Of a stretch of 23,204 nt of DNA, positions 2,536-23,097 are shown piece after piece (within the stretch, counting starts at the first letter, position 1; each line of letters starts with the position of its first letter). Where the stretch lies: positions 1-23,204 of the forward strand of contig CAJWCD010000046.1 of the NCBI GenBank assembly GCA_913020725.1. Reading direction: 5' to 3'. The position numbers were made by a program, and so were the translations under genes. The notes beneath the pieces were generated by a model that ran no database searches, was not told the origin of the DNA, and was given only the letters and a program-made list of their open reading frames with translations. This DNA is from an uncultured Pseudomonadota bacterium. GTDB taxonomy: Bacteria > SAR324 > NAC60-12.

Positions 2536-3354
2536 ATGAAATATCCTTCCATTAAGCTCTCCATGCTCCAACGTCAGCTCATCTCACTGACGTTTTCCGC
2601 CCTTCTCTTCACAGTTCCGATCTTTGCCGCAGAGCAGTGGACAGAACCAGTGACCAGGATGAAATTTGTGAGTGTCCCGGGCGGCAGTTTCCGGATTGGT
2701 GATCAGTTCGATGAGGGATCTGATGACGAGCAGAACAATCGAAAGATCACGATCCAACCCTTCCATCTGGGAGCGACGGAGGTGACGCAGGGTCAGTGGA
2801 AAGCCGTCATGAGCAGCAACCCCTCAAGGTTCAGGGGTGATGATCGCCCTGTGGAGGAGGTGAGCCGGTACAATGTGCAGGAATTCATCAGGAAGCTCAA
2901 CTCCCGCCACGGTGGCAAGTACCGGTTCCGTCTGCCGACGGAGGCGGAGTGGGAGTACGCCTGTCGCGAGGGGGGCAGGAAGGTGCGCTTTTGCAACAGC
3001 AGCGACCTCGCCAACCCTTCGGAGATGAACTTTAACGGTTCTGCGGAGAAAAAAGAGCCCTACTCGGTTGCAGGCGAGTATCTGGAAGAGACGACGCCTG
3101 CAGAGAGCTTTCCGCCAAACTCTCTGGGGCTTTATGACATGAGCGGCAACGTCTGGGAGTGGACGTGTTCGGAGTACCAGGATCGCTACGACGGCAGCGA
3201 GGAGCGGTGCGCGGATCAGGCCGACCGGTATTCCCTTCGCGGGGGTTCGTGGGGCAGCTTTCCGTGGGGGGTGCGTGCGGCGTACCGCAACCACCACCTC
3301 CTTCCGGCTTCCCGCAACGACCACATCGGATTTCGCCTTGCCCGGGACAACTGA
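2536..3354 (+). CDS. Secreted formylglycine-generating enzyme (FGE-sulfatase/SUMF1, CLec-fold) domain protein; probable DGR target
   Basis: N-terminal signal-like segment; motifs VPGGSFRIG, TEVTQGQW, PVEEVS, RLPTEAEWEYACR, PNSLGLYDMSGNVWEW, RGGSW...GFRLAR. Start at ATG 2536 or 2563. Confidence 0.92.
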   Translation: MKYPSIKLSMLQRQLISLTFSALLFTVPIFAAEQWTEPVTRMKFVSVPGGSFRIGDQFDEGSDDEQNNRKITIQPFHLGATEVTQGQWKAVMSSNPSRFRGDDRPVEEVSRYNVQEFIRKLNSRHGGKYRFRLPTEAEWEYACREGGRKVRFCNSSDLANPSEMNFNGSAEKKEPYSVAGEYLEETTPAESFPPNSLGLYDMSGNVWEWTCSEYQDRYDGSEERCADQADRYSLRGGSWGSFPWGVRAAYRNHHLLPASRNDHIGFRLARDN

Positions 3355-3389
3355 CCCTTTACCCTCTTTCCTTTTTCCCTTTTCAAAAG
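3340..3389 (+). repeat. Copy 1 of a 50-bp repeat: last codons (ARDN*) of the FGE gene plus pyrimidine tract (IMH-like)
   Basis: gcccgggacaactgaccctttaccctctttcctttttcccttttcaaaag; 46/50 identical to the reverse complement of 23048-23097. Confidence 0.9.
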
Positions 3390-3636: not shown

Positions 3637-3732
3637 TCAGGCGATAATTCCGTGCAAGATGATCGCAATTGAGACGTAGAAGGCGGCTTCAATGGTACCG
3701 ACTCCGACATTGCGGTTAATTTGAATTTCCGG
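3637..3732 (-). pseudogene. C-terminal remnant of a DUF350-like membrane protein
   Basis: PEIQINRNVGVGTIEAAFYVSIAIILHGIIA* fits EI...N.(A/G).G...A...I...II of DUF350; it begins exactly at the left MITE end. Confidence 0.55.
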
Positions 3733-3887
3733 TAGTCACCCTCTTGAGTGTTGTTCCTCTGAAAATCGGGAAAAATAACTGTAAACCGGGGGAAACGTAC
3801 CGGAAAACGCCGTCTATTTGCAAAATCCCAACACTTTACAGGGCAAATTTTGCTGAGGACAGGCACCAACACTCAAGAGGGGGACTA
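3733..3887. mobile_element. MITE-like element, ~155 bp, with terminal inverted repeats and TA ends
   Basis: tagtcaccctcttgagtgttg (3733-3753) and caacactcaagagggggacta (3867-3887) are 20/21 inverted; both ends are TA; no credible internal gene. Confidence 0.7.
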
Positions 3888-3891
3888 TCAA

Positions 3892-4020
3892 AAAATCGCC
3901 ACACTCAAAACTCTGGACTACCTCAAGCAACGGGCTGAGCGAGGAGACGAATCCCATGCTCTAAAGGTGCTGAAACAGTCATCCAGCGAACCTCCGCTTG
4001 CTTCAGATCGTGTCCACTAG
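3892..4020 (+). pseudogene. C-terminal remnant of a HicB-family/ribbon-helix-helix antitoxin-like protein
   Basis: KIATLKTLDYLKQRAERGDESHALKVLKQSSSEPPLASDRVH* resembles EKISAL.T..YL..RA.RG....FL.VL..VP..EP...D; the N-terminal RHH part is missing and the fragment begins at the right MITE end. Confidence 0.6.
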
Positions 4021-4080: not shown

Positions 4081-5964
4081 ATGTGTCGTGTTCTCAAACC
4101 ACTGCTGGCCCTGGGGCTGCTGGCCTTCGCCGCCGGATGCTCCACGCCTTCCCCTCCTACCTCCACAGAAAAAAACTCCGCCGCGCTCCGAGGCGTGCGC
4201 CGCACAGAGTTGAACGCCCCCCCAAAGGCAACTCGACACGCCTTCGTGATCGGCAATTCCGTATATCAGCACCTGCCGAACCTCCGGAACCCTCGTGCTG
4301 ACGCGCAGGCAATCGCCGCACTGCTGAGCGAGGCGGAATTCGAAGTTTCCCTGCACCTCGACACCACCCGCAAACGCCTGCTCAACGCGCTGGATGAATT
4401 TCAGCAACGACTTGCCCCAGACAGCGTGGTGCTGGTCTACTACGCCGGACACGCCGTGCAAGTCGCGGGACGCAACCACTTGATTCCGGTGGATGCCAAC
4501 CTAGGCAGTGAGTTGGATGTCGAGGCCGATTCACTGGCCGTGGATCGCCTGCTCGGCAAGCTGAAAGACCGCCACACTCGTCTCAAACTTTTCCTGCTTG
4601 ATGGCTGCCGCAACAATCCATTTCCGAGCCAATCCCGGGGCATCCGTCAAGGGTTGGCGGAAATCCGTGCACCTGCCGGAACCCTGATCGCCTACGCCAC
4701 CAGTCCAGGAACGGTCGCACTCGACGGTGACGGCCCGCACAGCCCCTACACCACCGCTTTGCTGCACCACCTCCGCAGTCCGGGATTGAAGATCGAGGAC
4801 GCCCTCAAGCGGGTGCGCACCGATCTCGTGCTGCAAACTGACTTGCGCCAAGTTCCGTGGGAGTCCTCCTCACTCTACGGGGACGATTTCATGCTCTTTC
4901 CTGCGGTAGCAGCAGCGTTGGCTCCCGCTGACTCTCCCGAAGCCTCCACGCCCGCCTCCAACCTTTCCCTCTCGCAAATGGAGGAAGCCTTCGCTGAGTT
5001 GATGGCACAGGAATCGGCGAGTTTCGATCCTGCACCGCAAGCCACGCAGTGGGGCCGTTTTCTGCACGATTATCCGGACGACTTCCCGCACACCAACACC
5101 GATGATGATTTGCGTCGCATCGCCACACAGCACCTCGTTTTTTGGCAGGCACGGGTCGCGGAAGCCCAGAATCCAGCACGTCGGCGAGCCTGGGCGGCAG
5201 GAACGTGGACCGAACCCCACGCCGATCTCAAATTCGTGGCGGTGACCGGCAACGCGCACTTCCGGATGGGCAATGTCTTGGGAGACGAGGACGGCGAGGT
5301 CACGATTCGCATGGTGCCTCGGTTCTGGATGAGCCGCACGGAGCTCACCAAGGCGCAGTGGCAGGCGATCATGCAGAGCGGCACTGCTGCAAAAACCCCT
5401 GCGGCGGGTCTCAAGCACAAGCTCCAGCAGGGCTGGCAAACGCTCAAGCAAAAGGGACGGGCCGTCCTCCGCAAGGGGCAGGAATTATGGAAAGGGGCGG
5501 CAGTCCAATCCGGAGTAAGCCGCAAAGCAGCGGCAGAATTCCTGGAACGTCTGAACGCCTTGCACCAAGACCGCTATCGCTTCCGACTGCCCAGCGCAGC
5601 CGAGTGGGAATACGCCTGCCGGGGCGGTGGACTGCCCGTGCGTTTCGGCACCGGGCGGAACACGATCAGCCTTGCCGATGCCAATTTTGCCCCGCAAGCG
5701 CTGGGCCTGCGTCCAGTCTATGTTTCCGGACCCCAGCGTTCTGCCGCACAAGCTCAACCCGCTCTTGCCGGAAGTTTTGCGCCCAATCCGCTCGGCCTCC
5801 ACGATTTGAGTGGCAACCTTGCGGAGTGGGTGACGAGCACTGAAGACTTACGGGGCGGTCACTTCCGCAGTCCGGGCCACGCCCTGCGTTGTGCCTCCCA
5901 GAGTCAGAGCGGCTGGTTCTCCAATTTGGAAACCGTCGGACTGCGGATTGTGCGGGATTACTGA
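4081..5964 (+). CDS. Lipoprotein with peptidase C14 (caspase-like) domain and C-terminal FGE-sulfatase/CLec domain
   Basis: Lipobox LAFAAGC; AFVIGNSVY...LRNPRADA, YYAGH and LDGCRNNP (His/Cys dyad), IAYATSPG, SPYT, QVPWESSSL; then RLPSAAEWEYACR, PNPLGLHDLSGNLAEW, RGG...GLRIVR. Confidence 0.9.
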   Translation: MCRVLKPLLALGLLAFAAGCSTPSPPTSTEKNSAALRGVRRTELNAPPKATRHAFVIGNSVYQHLPNLRNPRADAQAIAALLSEAEFEVSLHLDTTRKRLLNALDEFQQRLAPDSVVLVYYAGHAVQVAGRNHLIPVDANLGSELDVEADSLAVDRLLGKLKDRHTRLKLFLLDGCRNNPFPSQSRGIRQGLAEIRAPAGTLIAYATSPGTVALDGDGPHSPYTTALLHHLRSPGLKIEDALKRVRTDLVLQTDLRQVPWESSSLYGDDFMLFPAVAAALAPADSPEASTPASNLSLSQMEEAFAELMAQESASFDPAPQATQWGRFLHDYPDDFPHTNTDDDLRRIATQHLVFWQARVAEAQNPARRRAWAAGTWTEPHADLKFVAVTGNAHFRMGNVLGDEDGEVTIRMVPRFWMSRTELTKAQWQAIMQSGTAAKTPAAGLKHKLQQGWQTLKQKGRAVLRKGQELWKGAAVQSGVSRKAAAEFLERLNALHQDRYRFRLPSAAEWEYACRGGGLPVRFGTGRNTISLADANFAPQALGLRPVYVSGPQRSAAQAQPALAGSFAPNPLGLHDLSGNLAEWVTSTEDLRGGHFRSPGHALRCASQSQSGWFSNLETVGLRIVRDY

Positions 5965-6809: not shown

Positions 6810-7166
6810 ATGACCCCACTCGGTGCCGTTGGCACCCTCCTGCTGCTGATCTTCCTGCACCTTGCCGCTCTGCTGTTGTGGTGGCGCACCCGCAATGGTG
6901 CGTGGCTCTACCGTGTGGGCAGTGTTGACCTCGTGGGCGTGGTGATGGTAGGGGCCTTCTATCACGCCTCCCCCTCTGCCGGATTTCAGGATTGGCTCGG
7001 CATGATGCTGTTGTTGATCATGAACCTCGGCATCTTCACGAGCTTCGCGTTTCAGCGCAACACCGTGGTGTTCGGACGCCTCTGGGGAGTGCTGTTCTGG
7101 GTGGGGTTCACCGACTCCATCCTCGTTTTGGACGCCCTCGGCGTGTTTGCCCTCGCAGTCCGCTGA
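6810..7166 (+). CDS. Small hypothetical membrane protein (about 4 TM)
   Basis: 118 aa with four hydrophobic segments; co-oriented with, and 11 bp upstream of, the ATP-grasp gene. Confidence 0.7.
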   Translation: MTPLGAVGTLLLLIFLHLAALLLWWRTRNGAWLYRVGSVDLVGVVMVGAFYHASPSAGFQDWLGMMLLLIMNLGIFTSFAFQRNTVVFGRLWGVLFWVGFTDSILVLDALGVFALAVR

Positions 7167-7177
7167 AGGGCGTTGCC

Positions 7178-8191
7178 ATGAACATCGGTTTCCTGATGTA
7201 TGCGTGGGAGCGGATCGATCCCCGCTTCGACTCCACCCTGCGGCTGCTCCACGAATGCGCTCGGCGTGGGCATCGGGTGGCGGTCACGCATCCGGGCAGC
7301 TTGCAGGTTCACCACCATGTTCCCTCTGCGAATTGCCGAGTCGTCGTATCCAGTTCCACGCCAGACGCCGCGCCGGAAGCCTTCCATGCCAACCTCCGCT
7401 TTTCTGAGCAGCAACTTCCGCTCTCCGAATTTGACGCCCTCCTCATCCGTCTGCCCCCGCCGTTGGATTCCGAGGTGTTGGGTTTTCTCGACGCAGTGCA
7501 GCACAAAGTGTTTCTGCTCAACTCAATTGAGGGCTTGCGCCGTGCCGAAAGCAAACTCTACCCGCTCACGCTGTCTGCCGCCTCCCAAGCCTTCTTGCCC
7601 GCCACCCACGTCTTGAACGACCGCAGCGAACTCAAGCGCATCATTGAGGGCATGAACGGGCGGGTGGTGCTAAAACCTCTGCGCGGACTGGCGGGAAACG
7701 GGGTGTCGGTGGTGGACGCTGAGGATCCGGAAAACTTGGACACCGTGCTGCGCCGCTACACAGACGGACGCTTTGGCTCGGAATCGGACTATGTGATGGT
7801 GCAGGAGTATGTCGAAAGTCCGGAGCCGGGAGACGTGCGCATCCTCTTGTTGGACGGCGAACCGCTTGGGGCCATGCGGCGGCGGCCTCCGGAAGGTGGG
7901 TTTCGTAGCAACCTTCACGCAGGCGGAGAGGCAAGGCCCCACACCCTGACCTCAACCGAACAACGCCTCTGCCAACAGCTTGGTCCGGAACTCGTCGCTG
8001 ACGGGTTGGATTTCGTCGGACTGGATGTGATTGCAGACAAATTGCTGGAGGTCAACGTGTGCAGCCCGGGTGGACTCACACGCATCAACCGCTTCAATAA
8101 TGTGCGGCTACAAGCGTCGGTGATTGACTTTGTAGAAACGCGAATGCAAGCCCGGACTCCGCAAATCCATGCGGAGGAAGCCAATGCCTGA
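7178..8191 (+). CDS. gshB: Glutathione synthetase-like ATP-grasp ligase (GshB-like)
   Basis: MNIGFLMYAWERIDP..DSTLRL, VVLKPLRGLAGNGV, VMVQEY, GDVRILLLDGEPLGAMRR.P..GFRSNLHAGG, FVGLDVI...LEVNVCSPGG. Start set at ATG 7178. True substrate uncertain. Confidence 0.82.
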   Translation: MNIGFLMYAWERIDPRFDSTLRLLHECARRGHRVAVTHPGSLQVHHHVPSANCRVVVSSSTPDAAPEAFHANLRFSEQQLPLSEFDALLIRLPPPLDSEVLGFLDAVQHKVFLLNSIEGLRRAESKLYPLTLSAASQAFLPATHVLNDRSELKRIIEGMNGRVVLKPLRGLAGNGVSVVDAEDPENLDTVLRRYTDGRFGSESDYVMVQEYVESPEPGDVRILLLDGEPLGAMRRRPPEGGFRSNLHAGGEARPHTLTSTEQRLCQQLGPELVADGLDFVGLDVIADKLLEVNVCSPGGLTRINRFNNVRLQASVIDFVETRMQARTPQIHAEEANA

Positions 8192-8196
8192 ACCCA

Positions 8197-9336
8197 ATGC
8201 CTGAGCGTTACCCTGATCCCACTTTGCGGCGCATCGACCGCGCCGTGACCCGTGCGGCGAAGGCTCCGGATTTGCTGCACTACCTCACTCCAGTCAATCT
8301 CGAATCGGAACGCCGCCGCTTTCTGAAAAAACAAGGCACCCGCAATCCGGCCTTTTCGTATCGGCTTCCGGAACTTGATCCGATTGTCCAGAAACGCACC
8401 CTGCATCGCATCCCGCTGGAGGAAATCGCCGATTCCGAAATCCAGCAGCTTTATGTGGATGTAGTGCAGGACTGCTCGAATCGGCTGGACCTCTTGCAGT
8501 CGCTTGGCACGGAACGCTTCCTCTACGACAGTTTGCGCTACTTCGGACGTCCGGGACGGCAGGAACTCAAGGATGCGGAATTTCTGCTCCACGGAGCGCC
8601 ATTGGCAGCGGACGAGCAGGAGGAGACTCTGCCCCTAGTGGACACCGCCCGCATTTTTGAGGACACCGCCCGCGACCACGGCTTCAGTTGCAGCATCGAA
8701 TACACCGACCGACTCATCTCCAAGGCCCTCGCCGGACCCCGCGGCCTGCGCATTCGCAAAAATGTGCGGTTCTCCGCACAGGAAACCCGTGCGTTGGCAC
8801 ATCACGAGATCGGAGTCCACTACCTCACCACCCTCAACGCTCGCAGACAGCCACTCTGCGTCCTGCAAATTGGGCTTCCGGTCAACACGATCACACAAGA
8901 GGGCTTGGGGGTGTTGAGCGAGTACCTTTCCGGAAACCTCACGCTGCAACGCCTCCGGGAAATCGCGTTGCGCGTGATTGCAGTCCACGAGGTGGTGGAA
9001 GGCACCGAGTTCCGGCACACCTTTCAGCGGCTGGTCGAACAGTACGAGATTGACCCGGAACGCGCCTTTGACGTGACCGTGCGGGCGTATCGTGGTCGGG
9101 GTTTCACCAAGGACTATGTTTACCTGCGGGGTTTCCGGACGATGCTGCTGCGCTTCCAATCCGGACAAACACTGGACGCTCTGCTCATCGGCAAGACGCA
9201 TCACGACTACCAGCCCGTGCTGGAGCGCATGATCGCAAAGCGCCTGCTGCACCCTCCGGCGTTCCAGACAGTCGCGTTTGCCAAACCCGCTGCGCCCGAT
9301 CCGATTCTCGCCTACCTCGTGCGCTCCTTGCGCTGA
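8197..9336 (+). CDS. QEGLA-motif / DUF1704 metallopeptidase (Tyr/Phe carboxypeptidase-domain family)
   Basis: HHEIGVHYLTTLN (HExxxH), TQEGLG, LREIALRV, RAYRGRGFTKDYVYLRG, LLIGK. Confidence 0.88.
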   Translation: MPERYPDPTLRRIDRAVTRAAKAPDLLHYLTPVNLESERRRFLKKQGTRNPAFSYRLPELDPIVQKRTLHRIPLEEIADSEIQQLYVDVVQDCSNRLDLLQSLGTERFLYDSLRYFGRPGRQELKDAEFLLHGAPLAADEQEETLPLVDTARIFEDTARDHGFSCSIEYTDRLISKALAGPRGLRIRKNVRFSAQETRALAHHEIGVHYLTTLNARRQPLCVLQIGLPVNTITQEGLGVLSEYLSGNLTLQRLREIALRVIAVHEVVEGTEFRHTFQRLVEQYEIDPERAFDVTVRAYRGRGFTKDYVYLRGFRTMLLRFQSGQTLDALLIGKTHHDYQPVLERMIAKRLLHPPAFQTVAFAKPAAPDPILAYLVRSLR

Positions 9337-10446: not shown

Positions 10447-12482
10447 CCGCGACGGCGCTTGCGCCCCGTTGATTGCGACCAGTCACGCGGTTTCCACGCG
10501 CCCTGCTCCCGGGAATCGTCCGAACGCCGCTCCCGATCATCCCCGTTGCGCTCGAAACGTTGACCACGCGGCTTGAAGTCACTGCTCTGCTCAAAGCGTC
10601 GGTCGGAGGGCTTGCGGTCGGAAGGTTTGCGTTCAAAGCGTTTGAAATCTCCCCGGCCTTCCCCGTTTTGTGGCGCAGGCTTGCGGTCAAACTTCTGGGA
10701 ATCCTGTGAATTGCCACGCTGATTGTCATCCCGTTTCCCGTTTCGGAAGGAGCCACGATCCGCATCGAAGGAGCGCGCTTTCTGGAAACCTCCAGAACGT
10801 TCGCCAAAGCGATCCGAGTTGCGGCGGAATCCGGAATCCTGCTCACGAGAGGGTTGCCGTCCTTGGCGTTCACCGTTCGATTCCTTGGATTGTCCGCGTT
10901 CCTCGCGCTGGGGTGCTGATTTCTTATCGAAGGAGCGCGCTTTCTGGAAACCTCCAGAACGTTCGCCAAAGCGATCCGAGTTGCGGCGGAATCCGGAATC
11001 CTGCTCACGAGAGGGTTGCCGTCCTTGGCGTTCACCGTTCGATTCCTTGGATTGTCCGCGTTCCTCGCGCTGGGGTGCTGATTTCTTCCGGCCCTGCTGC
11101 CGCAGATCCACTGCAGATCCGGAATCCTCCCGGAAATTCCTGCTACGCGGGCGTTCGTCTCGCGACTCGTCGAAGCGCTTACGCTCCGGACGCTGCGACT
11201 CAAACTGCCGATTCACACTCCCAGAACGTTTTCCATCTGCGGAATTCTTCCACCGTGCAGGTTTTTCAAACCCTTCCGTGTTTGCAGAATAATCCTCACG
11301 TCGGTTCTCCCCGGACTCTTCCGTTCGAGCGGAGGCGGGTCGGTCAAGCTCCTTGGCAATCGTCCATTTGTGAACCGGAATGGACTGCTTCAACACACGC
11401 TCGATGGATTTGAGCTTCTTGCGCTCGTCCGGAGCGCAGAGCGAAACGGCGATGCCATCTGCGCCCGCACGCGCCGTGCGGCCAATCCGATGAACGTAGC
11501 TTTCCGGCTCGTCCGGGAGTTCGTAGTTGAAGACGTGCGAGATGCCCGTGACGTCGATGCCGCGAGAGGCGACATCGGTGGCGACCAGCACCTTGAGCTG
11601 ACCCGTCCGGAAACCCCGCAACGCCCGCTCACGCTGGCTCTGGCTACGGTTGCCGTGGATTGAATCAACACGGACACCTTTTTCGCTGAGCGTTTTCGCC
11701 AGCTTGTCCGCCCCGAACTTGGTGCGGGTGAAAACAAGTCCTCGGGACATCTGCGACTCGTGCAGCAGGGTGCGGAGCAGGTCGCGCTTGAGCTTCTTGT
11801 CCACCATCAACACGCGCTGTTCGACGCGCTCGACCGTTTTGGATTCCGGAGCAATCTCCACTCGTACAGGATTGTTGAGCAGAGTATTCACCAAGTCCGA
11901 CACCCCCTTGGGCATCGTTGCAGAAAAGAGCATGTTCTGCCGCGATTTGGGGAGCAGTGCAGCAATCCGCTTGATCTCCGGGAGAAAACCGACGTCCAAC
12001 ATACGGTCGGCCTCGTCGAGTACCAACACTTCCACGTCCCCCAAGAAAACGTTGCCCTGTTCCATGTGATCACGCAGGCGTCCGGGTGTGGCAACCAAGA
12101 CCTCAACTCCGTTCTGAAGCATGCGACGCTGCGGCGGCAGACGCACTCCGCCATAGACCACCCCACAGGGCAGCCGAAGGTGCCGACCCAATTGGTGGAC
12201 CACGGTGTCCACTTGCACGGCAAGCTCGCGGGTCGGGACAAGGATCAGCGCTCGCGGACGCTTGCGCTCGGCAACACGGCCTTCTGCCGCCAAGCGGTGC
12301 AACAGCGGCAGCACGAATGCGGCGGTCTTGCCGGTGCCGGTTTGCGCGATGCCCAGCAGGTCATGCCCGTCGAGTAGTTTTGGGATGGATTCGTGCTGAA
12401 TCGGGGTGGGGGTGTGAAAGTCCAGTTCGCCCAATGCTTGATGCAATGGGGTCGCCAGCGGGAACTCTTGAAAGGTGTGCAT
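10443..12482 (-). CDS. DEAD-box RNA helicase (RhlE-like) with long disordered R/S/E/G-rich C-terminus
   Basis: Q motif TPTPIQ, AQTGTGKT, PTRELA, TPGR, DEAD, SAT, RGID, HRIGRTARAG. GGAG RBS before ATG 12482, so the start is trimmed from the ORF track. Confidence 0.95.
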   Translation of the reverse strand: MHTFQEFPLATPLHQALGELDFHTPTPIQHESIPKLLDGHDLLGIAQTGTGKTAAFVLPLLHRLAAEGRVAERKRPRALILVPTRELAVQVDTVVHQLGRHLRLPCGVVYGGVRLPPQRRMLQNGVEVLVATPGRLRDHMEQGNVFLGDVEVLVLDEADRMLDVGFLPEIKRIAALLPKSRQNMLFSATMPKGVSDLVNTLLNNPVRVEIAPESKTVERVEQRVLMVDKKLKRDLLRTLLHESQMSRGLVFTRTKFGADKLAKTLSEKGVRVDSIHGNRSQSQRERALRGFRTGQLKVLVATDVASRGIDVTGISHVFNYELPDEPESYVHRIGRTARAGADGIAVSLCAPDERKKLKSIERVLKQSIPVHKWTIAKELDRPASARTEESGENRREDYSANTEGFEKPARWKNSADGKRSGSVNRQFESQRPERKRFDESRDERPRSRNFREDSGSAVDLRQQGRKKSAPQREERGQSKESNGERQGRQPSREQDSGFRRNSDRFGERSGGFQKARSFDKKSAPQREERGQSKESNGERQGRQPSREQDSGFRRNSDRFGERSGGFQKARSFDADRGSFRNGKRDDNQRGNSQDSQKFDRKPAPQNGEGRGDFKRFERKPSDRKPSDRRFEQSSDFKPRGQRFERNGDDRERRSDDSREQGAWKPRDWSQSTGRKRRRG
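10764..11087. repeat. Perfect 162-bp in-frame tandem duplication in the helicase tail
   Basis: 10764-10925 and 10926-11087 are identical and encode a 54-aa unit KKSAPQREE...KARSFD twice. Confidence 0.95.
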
Positions 12483-21736: not shown

Positions 21737-22602
21737 GAAAAGACTTCTGCATCAACTGTCTGGTGGAGTTGCGTCGCCGCGTCATCCCGTGTATCGACGT
21801 CCTCGAAAACCCCGAAAACCGCCGAGCCGCTTCCACTCACGGATGCACCAATTGCGCCAACCGAACGGAGTTTTGACTTCAGCACTTCCAGTTCTGGAAA
21901 CCGATTCCGCAAGGTTAGCTCAAAGCGGTTGCAGAGCATCGCCTCCAATGCTTGCGGGGAGTCCGGTGGATGCGGCGGGGACTCCTCCAGCGGCTGGCAG
22001 TTGTCGTAAGCCTCGGCGGTGGAACTGGAAAACGGAGGTTTGAGCACCACAAGCGGCAGACACGGGTAGTCCGGCAGAGGACACAACGCTTCCCCGCGTC
22101 CCGTGGCCTCGCAGGGCTGAGGATCGAGAAAAAACGGCACGTCCGCGCCCAACCCAACAGCAAGCATGTGGAGCATCGAAGCACTGAGTCGATTTCCGTG
22201 CAGATGGTTCAGCACCCGCAAAACCGCAGCGGCATCACTGCTCCCCCCGCCCAGCCCAGCCCCGTCCGGAATATGCTTCTCCAAGTGAAGCTTCAGATGC
22301 ACGGTTTGCTGAGTGGCCTGCTCAAACGCCCGCACCGCTCGTACCGCGAGGTTGTACTCCGGCTCCACCATGACCGGACGCCCTGTGCTTTGAAACCTCA
22401 CCCCTCCGGAAGTTTGCGGTGTAAAGCTCAACCGGTCATAAAGACTGATCGGAACCAGATGCAGAAATAGATCGTGAAAGCCGTCCGGACGCTTGCGCAG
22501 AATCTGGAGAACCGGGTTGATCTTTGCAGGAGACCAAATGTCCACTTGGCTTTCTGGAGAAAGAGGTTCCCGTTTGTCCCTGTAGCCAATCTCAGCCATC
22601 AT
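21673..22602 (-). CDS. ispE: 4-diphosphocytidyl-2-C-methyl-D-erythritol kinase
   Basis: SPAKIN..L.I..KRPDGFH, KHIP.GAGLGGGSSDAA, LGADVPFF, SGSGSAVFG. True start may be the GTG at 22545. Confidence 0.95.
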   Translation of the reverse strand: MMAEIGYRDKREPLSPESQVDIWSPAKINPVLQILRKRPDGFHDLFLHLVPISLYDRLSFTPQTSGGVRFQSTGRPVMVEPEYNLAVRAVRAFEQATQQTVHLKLHLEKHIPDGAGLGGGSSDAAAVLRVLNHLHGNRLSASMLHMLAVGLGADVPFFLDPQPCEATGRGEALCPLPDYPCLPLVVLKPPFSSSTAEAYDNCQPLEESPPHPPDSPQALEAMLCNRFELTLRNRFPELEVLKSKLRSVGAIGASVSGSGSAVFGVFEDVDTRDDAATQLHQTVDAEVFSCRMLTGPDAQHLFDSGPSGE

Positions 22603-22974
22603 AAGGGACTGCTAGTTTCTTCGCTAGAAGTAGATCACTCAGGTTTTGACCATCCACAATCACAGATGCAACAATCCTGAAGTACTTCTCCCGTTCAATA
22701 TCGTGGAGGGTGATTTCGTTTGCGCGGTTCAGTATCCCCTCGATCAAAGTTTTGGTCTCTTTTGCCTTCTGTTTTTCAAACGGATATTTTCCCGTATTTC
22801 CAGTGTGTCGATGCCCCGCACCCTGATTCCGATTTCATTTCCAAAAAGCGGATGCACTCCGGGAATGTTTACGGTCATGGTGTCCCCGTCATAGTTCCGG
22901 ACATATTCGACACCGGAGAAATTGGAGGTTGAAACAGGTGCTCTGATCAGTTTCTCTATCAACGGGATCTGCAC
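22592..22974 (-). pseudogene. Frameshifted thermonuclease (SNase-like) gene
   Basis: YVRNYDGDT..V...GIRVRGIDTLEIR, then a one-base shift near 22790 (cgggaaaatatccg) continues KYPFEKQKAKETK...EKYFRIVASVIVDGQNLSDLLLAKKLAVPYDG*. Confidence 0.8.
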
Positions 22975-23047
22975 CCACTGAATTCGACCTTTCCTCCTTT
23001 CATCGGGGGGTGCCGGGGACTGACGCCTCCTTAGCCCATGCAGGGGT

Positions 23048-23097
23048 CTTTTGAAAAGGAGAAAAGGAAAGAGGGTAAAGGGTTAGTTGTCCCGAGC
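23048..23097 (-). repeat. Copy 2 of the 50-bp FGE-end/IMH-like repeat, without its gene
   Basis: Reverse complement gctcgggacaactaaccctttaccctctttccttttctccttttcaaaag, which still reads ARDN*. Confidence 0.88.

Follow-up and report, generated by a model that had tools for sequence, protein, structure and literature searches.

The question raised by this locus is whether a lectin-like gene of an uncultured SAR324 bacterium ends in a variable region (VR) written by a diversity-generating retroelement (DGR), a hypermutation system, and, if so, whether that region is still being rewritten. The window, by which we mean the whole 23,204-nucleotide stretch analyzed, is the entire contig C46 of a 3.45-Mb assembly that is 93% complete, and the runs that cover it best are marine, seawater and vent metagenomes. 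We consider it highly probable that the VR was written by a chromosomal DGR and is now frozen, because what remains of the genome's cassette, on contig C24, is a relic that has no template and keeps only a scrap of the reverse transcriptase (RT). An earlier note on this DNA had proposed a remote DGR target served in trans by an RT/template cassette elsewhere. The first half of that proposal stands, since the codon-position and adenine signature indicates a DGR-written VR on a remote FGE/C-type-lectin (CLec) target, but present-day service by such a cassette is not supported, in view of the doubly deleted relic, the near-invariant VR and the missing hairpin.

The target gene and its variable region

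The target gene (2536 to 3354, plus strand) encodes 272 amino acids, with a signal-peptide-like N-terminus followed by one FGE-sulfatase/C-type-lectin domain; an alternative ATG at 2563 gives 263 amino acids, and both starts are present in the protein collection. The protein matches PF03781 (E 5e-48) and, in a phmmer search, the DGR target TvpA (2y3c; E 8.5e-15), and its structure model reaches a pLDDT of 85.5 and a pTM of 0.87. The sequence searches, together with the confidence of the model, assign it a C-terminal C-type-lectin/FGE fold. The segment from 2536 to 2628 (plus strand), read by eye from the translation, has a basic start, a hydrophobic core and small residues before the mature domain, and on the basis of this signal-peptide-like N-terminus the protein is putatively secreted. 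The catalytic cysteines of the formylglycine-generating enzyme presumably sit in the loop after RGGSW; when aligned to the solved enzyme, the window protein lacks any cysteine in the stretch from RGGSW to GFRL. The predicted product is an exported lectin-fold binder with one fixed specificity. RNA runs contain 0.11 to 0.29 of the words of the stretch, a fraction that does not by itself show expression.

The VR, a frozen allele recognized by its codon signature and its near-invariance across samples, extends from 3238 to 3345 (plus strand), from RGGSW to GFRLAR. The codons that the earlier note had read between the scaffold residues (GGC AGC TTT / TAC / AAC CAC CAC CTC CTT / GCT TCC / AAC GAC CAC) are confirmed, as is the C or T third base in all 14 of them, with TGG GGG as the exceptions. 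Both exceptional codons do end in G, but they are consistent with adenine-only change from AGG codons in the inferred template, the sister VRs having AGG, CGG, GGG or TGG in the first place and, for the most part, NGG in the second. As 53% of the 234 upstream codons of the gene end in C or T, the probability of at least 14 in 16 is 0.004, which is modest support because the codons were picked after the fact.

A stronger test is provided by an 11-sequence block of related VR 3' ends, a 3' block that was not selected by the VR pattern; the frameshifted VR of genome G002 was kept in the 3' block only, and locus L051, which has one extra codon, was dropped from the 11 for its length. Since the cognate template was not recovered, the template of the related genome G006 serves as a proxy for the adenines. 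All nine template-A columns are variable in this block, and the four AAC-derived codons invariably end in C (44 of 44 cases). With the anchor columns removed, the template-A columns are variable in 9/9 cases versus 5/11 for the others (p=0.014). Compared in pairs, the 11 VR ends differ at rates of 0.49, 0.62 and 0.06 at codon positions 1, 2 and 3, and the six of them that the pattern did not fetch at rates of 0.49, 0.57 and 0.11. In four sets of non-DGR FGE orthologues from the genus, 14, 13 and 83 of 277 sites differ at the same positions, so that the VR follows the reverse of the ordinary FGE pattern. Taken at the sequence level, the end of the target gene carries a DGR signature beyond chance.

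The five residues between R and P, suspected previously of being an unusual length, represent a real length variant. Among the related template motifs, 43 of 47 align with one 3-nt gap and are one codon shorter than the window VR at this place, and the sister VRs hold 4, 5 or 8 codons there. A one-codon slip is a plausible origin of the fifth codon, and in-frame indels have been reported for DGRs with remote targets (PMC5758913).

The gene's 3' end and the pyrimidine tract behind it (3346 to 3389, plus strand) are common to other VR ends and to intact related cassettes. As had been noticed from the letters, the tract after the stop is rich in pyrimidines (24 of 25 bases are C or T); the median is 22 of 25 after 38 VRs of this lineage, which makes the tract a conserved post-VR feature and a candidate IMH, and the same 3' end and tract precede avd both on C24 and in G006. 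A GC hairpin follows 30 of 38 cognate VRs versus 65 of 500 random pieces, a difference that rests on a count of perfect stems; when the 3' regions were folded as whole pieces of 100 to 136 bases, the z-scores were not significant. The hairpin is present on C190, C191, C24 and in G006 and is absent after 3345 in the window copy. In BPP-1, a downstream hairpin is required for efficient homing (PMC3240598).

The relic cassette and its relatives

The cassette of this genome survives at C24:1-456 as a VR end followed by a hairpin and by an avd that runs into a 25-residue scrap of RT; there is no template. A tblastn search with the G006 Avd matched C24:116-382 at 75% identity (Avd residues 9 to 97), and one with the G006 RT matched C24:374-457, corresponding to RT residues 313 to 340 and in frame with avd. 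The avd therefore ends at about residue 97, where it joins the scrap, itself the last conserved 25 residues of the RT. An unrelated gene starts about 60 bp farther on, with no template in between. By its sequence, this cassette is a doubly deleted relic.

The absence of an RT or template near the gene, pointed out before, holds for the window and extends to the whole assembly, apart from the scrap on C24. The template repeat expected elsewhere in the genome was not found in the assembly by blastn, by an adenine-tolerant scan or by a pattern search. The expectation of a DGR RT and an Avd was borne out as far as the relic avd and RT scrap on C24; there is no intact copy of either in the assembly. 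A profile of 120 DGR RTs run against all six frames of the assembly found only the C24 scrap, and a PF00078 search of the assembly had no match. A four-helix protein on C67 was tried as an Avd; it has a weak PF22296 match but an E of 0.71 with the DGR Avd profile and was rejected. RT frames of about 950 to 990 amino acids in G002, G003, G014 and G020 were also considered as DGR RTs; the two that were examined (G002 and G003) are not DGR-like, and a DGR RT query had no match in these four genomes. In the G002 frame (C121, L036), what seems to be a deletion has joined the RT domain to a vWA-like domain; the G003 frame lies on C59 (L030). An attempt to find a full-length RT through words shared with the C24 scrap gave no candidate, but it also missed the G006 RT, which does share such words, and so carries no weight. 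Neither the VR pattern nor the C24 Avd found a counterpart in the viral collection, which therefore gives no sign of a phage-borne cassette.

A whole cassette does exist in the same family, on contig C32 of G006 (L033), in the order VR, pyrimidine tract, GC hairpin, avd, RT and template. Its VR differs from its template at 16 of 27 adenines, with no other mismatches and one 3-nt gap, whereas the same template departs from the window VR at 14 non-adenine positions and is therefore not the cognate one. It resembles the C24 relic in the order of its elements, in a hairpin with the same 6-bp stem and 4-base loop, and in an Avd that is 75% identical; unlike C24, it has full-length avd, RT and template. 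The target gene of this cassette, the only intact one found, is frameshifted and internally deleted.

Among 45 genomes of the family, the VR pattern occurs only in the window genome and in G006. The other two genomes of the genus hold VR-end remnants (three in G001, and a single frameshifted VR in G002), and neither is matched by the DGR RT query. In intact relatives, 27 to 71% of template adenines are changed per VR, a range taken from 38 VRs after 32 of 79 related loci, with no template motif in the fetched stretch, had been left out. The closest relatives of the Avd belong to Methylococcales, Competibacteraceae, Chromatiaceae, Thiohalocapsa and Thiomargarita.

The same decay is seen in other sequences of the population. 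Among the 120 best of 256 matches in the Avd search, only two clusters exceed 75% identity (70 and 15 members, at 93 to 96%), followed by G006 at 75%. Of the members of these clusters that were listed (15 of 70 and 15 of 15), 29 of 30 are deleted forms and one is too short to tell. The 3' junction that removes the template is common to all listed relic copies that reach it. The avd-RT junctions among those listed fall into three kinds: in 10 the frame is maintained and the avd residues are retained, in 4 it is maintained and those of the RT are retained, and in 15 the frame is shifted. Of the 8000 RT hits scored, the 120 best all match the C24 scrap at 21 of 25 residues or fewer. The loss of the cassette looks shared across the sampled population.

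We infer the following course, in which the order of loss is drawn from protein sequences. While the cassette was whole, RT and Avd would have copied the template RNA with errors at adenines, as in established DGR biology, and the cDNA would have replaced the 3' ends of several FGE/lectin genes, including the remote window gene, altering the ligand-binding surface. The template would have been lost first, because all relic copies share the same 3' junction. The avd-RT interval would then have been deleted at least twice across a short similar stretch, because there are two types of junction, each matching one parent. What is left would be a limited set of fixed binding tips, which ordinary recombination likely still carries from one protein body to another.

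The frozen region in the population

One 236-nt contig spanning 3148 to 3383 occurs with zero differences in all four runs, from four studies, at depths of 12, 33, 21 and 22 versus 9 to 25 for the flanking contigs. It is important to consider that the runs were selected for holding this stretch, that one of them may be the source sample, and that Logan contigs drop rare variants, so this invariance is one of contigs and not of raw reads. In the listed part of the difference table (271 further rows fall outside it), other letters do occur at 3254, 3261 and 3308 within the VR; we attribute these to paralogues, since the divergent contigs listed for this region depart from the window by 20 to 52 letters along the gene body. 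Scanning the metagenomes for the pattern gave 11 matches on 10 loci, four of which carry the window VR with its downstream DNA. The VR is identical in three of these four contigs, and the fourth has 2 changes in 108 bases versus 22 in 1626 outside. It is also identical in 12 of the 14 listed proteins that cover it, two of which are the window's own; one of the remaining two has a single change and the other has that change plus another. The C191-type VR is likewise identical in 11 listed proteins. Hypervariation at codon positions 1 and 2, for which the earlier note had proposed a test in mapped reads, was not seen at the contig level, where the VR is near-invariant across samples. The few variants look like point mutations, because a single rewrite changes 27 to 71% of adenines in the intact relatives.

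A reading compatible with this freezing is that selection fixed one useful specificity and that the machine was lost afterwards as useless. The same tip is found across four studies and on two gene bodies, and the protein cluster of the target has 69 members (15 of them listed), as might be expected of a domesticated allele. Against it, a nonsense change at 2662 occurs in two of the metagenome contigs, one of which also has a 4-nt deletion, and another contig has a 434-nt deletion in the target gene, so that three of the four carry inactivating changes and the fourth is a mosaic. In addition, several members of the target-protein cluster are truncated, and no orthologue of the gene was found in G001 or G002. 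Part of the population thus has a broken gene, and we regard selection for this allele as rather unlikely.

Less likely still, indeed quite improbable, is that the gene remains a live remote target, rewritten at a low rate by an intact cassette that is unassembled or confined to a rare subpopulation. Breaks in the assembly fall at VRs (the start of C24, the ends of C190 and C191, and the start of C47), and a second cassette could have gone unassembled because the assembly is 93% complete and broken at these places. The family does hold a whole cassette, in G006, many distinct VRs exist in the species or genus, and the two variant sites seen, 3299 and 3317, both lie at inferred template adenines, as weak activity would give. 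Yet no intact Avd or RT of the lineage is present among the listed matches, and none of the 11 metagenome matches to the pattern that a template should fit is a template, in a collection from which records of very close genomes may be missing. The variants differ by one or two bases rather than by about half of the adenines, at a density close to that outside the VR, and the window copy has no hairpin.

Hardly credible, and largely refuted at the sequence level, is an ordinary FGE paralogue with C/T codon bias and a terminator-like 3' repeat, for although the loop of a conserved FGE without a VR, in G001 and G022, starts in a similar way and the 14 of 16 codons give only the post hoc p=0.004, the codon-position pattern is reversed, the variable columns sit on template adenines (G006 proxy), and the same 3' end runs straight into avd on C24 and in G006.

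The preferred reading, a DGR-written VR that is now frozen, agrees with both sets of features of the locus. It has those of a DGR target gene, namely, an FGE/CLec domain, differences confined to adenines (G006 proxy) and the shared 3' end, and it lacks those of a functional DGR, namely, a cognate template, an intact RT, an intact Avd, the hairpin and, at the contig level, ongoing hypervariation.

The tips themselves are found on more than one body. In L054, the window tip is joined to another FGE body, and the sequence abruptly becomes identical near 3115. The C191 tip occurs on bodies of 896 and about 605 amino acids, the second of these represented by several sequences, and on a single body two discrete tips occur, each of them twice. 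Reassortment of tips by recombination after the element died is the likely source of these combinations, with assembly chimera a possibility for the mosaics known from single contigs. As a tentative extension, the finite tip library of the dead DGR might still be in use, with recombination in the conserved FGE body and 3' tract swapping tips between short lectins and caspase-lectin sensors. If so, and we offer it as speculation, an ocean-wide SAR324 species might maintain population-level combinatorial diversity without a reverse transcriptase.

Comparison with known systems and neighbouring features

Orphan DGR targets are already known, and the SAR324 case adds a frozen example with a visible relic cassette. 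Isolates of Treponema denticola that lack RT and template repeat keep leftover DGR targets (Nimkulrat et al. 2016, PMC4891356). Those leftovers resemble ours in being FGE/CLec targets, several per genome, whose VRs differ from related templates at adenines and whose core cassette has been lost. In contrast, the host here is free-living and marine, the relic is visible as an avd-RT fusion, and the loss looks shared across the sampled population, whereas it is described as patchy among T. denticola strains.

The locus also resembles the CLec1/FGE-sulfatase DGRs of category 'b'/Lineage 4 (Wu et al. 2018, PMC5758913), as presented there, in its C-terminal FGE domain with a VR, in its remote and multiple targets, in the in-frame changes of VR length and in the extra N-terminal domains on some targets; unlike them, it has no functional RT or template. 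In that survey, over half of the candidate DGRs are given as broken (PMC5758913). Clade 5 DGRs of multicellular bacteria, such as that of Thiohalocapsa PB-PSB1 (Dore et al. 2024, PMC10907252), similarly combine short CLec-only and caspase-bearing targets, and the closest Avd relatives named above, Thiohalocapsa and Thiomargarita among them, are a further likeness. The likeness to Clade 5/Lineage 4 is one of the taxa in which Avd and RT relatives occur, and not of placement in a tree. The Clade 5 loci are described as diversifying in nature (PMC10907252), which the SAR324 locus apparently does not. The SAR324 targets have signal-peptide-like starts, and SAR324 bacteria are described as planktonic.

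We found no report of a DGR in SAR324 in the literature (mostly outside subscription journals) or in the supplements of two surveys, two files excepted. DGRs have been suggested to be rare in the open ocean since random binding may not pay there (PMC8144416), and the SAR324 case fits this suggestion as it is published. The gain and death of a hypermutation system would here be recorded in an abundant ocean lineage. For genome scans, the locus advises caution, since a clean VR signature speaks of past and not of present activity. If it is true that frozen tips are still reassorted and selected, the species would offer a natural test of what becomes of a DGR repertoire after the machine is lost.

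Two other VR ends of the genome lie on open frames (C190 and C191). There are also remnants, two of them on C190 and others on C191, C24, C180 and close to the window's other end. The last is an orphan inverted VR 3' end with pyrimidine tract (23015 to 23097, minus strand), in which the remnant itself (23048 to 23097, minus strand) matches 3340 to 3389 at 46 of 50 bases and is followed by a degenerate hairpin, with no VR upstream. Directly behind it, at 22600 to 22900 on the minus strand, a frameshifted nuclease-like gene, its family guessed from the translation, runs into an ispE-like gene. The VRs of C190 and of P0390/P0391 have a different scaffold, which would imply a second template, whose cassette was not found in our searches. 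The gene at C190:1992-2987 has a partial VR at its start and a complete one at its end and probably represents what is left of a target with tandem lectin domains. On C190:1-1990 and C191:3599-3858, VR remnants follow the 3' end of a molybdopterin-oxidoreductase-like gene, and the first 580 or so bases of C190 look foreign, being GC-rich and anthranilate-synthase-like (both genes named by eye), possibly through assembly chimera.

Downstream of the target gene, a MITE-like repeat of about 160 bp (3731 to 3893, no strand) with terminal inverted repeats of about 22 bp is not part of the DGR; it has 26 matches in the window genome, many of them where contigs end, compared with about 45 in G002 and 3 in G006. 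The caspase (Peptidase_C14) and FGE gene that follows (4081 to 5964, plus strand) has no VR signature, is conserved in G001 and served as a negative control. A longer-loop FGE conserved across two genera (L002 on G001 C16 and L006 on G022 C75), NNC-rich in G001, is possibly a much older, domesticated DGR target. A leader and signal-peptide module occurs in eight copies in the window genome (C180:4241-4420, C81, C90, C190, C75, C186, C80 and C201), often before no more than a gene stump, and in L051 it starts a caspase-FGE gene. Elsewhere in the window, a glutathione-synthetase-like ATP-grasp gene is followed by a MATCAP (PF08014) peptidase gene at 6992 to 9336, and a direct repeat of about 50 codons lies in the C-terminal tail of a DEAD-box-helicase-like gene at 10723 to 11292 on the minus strand.
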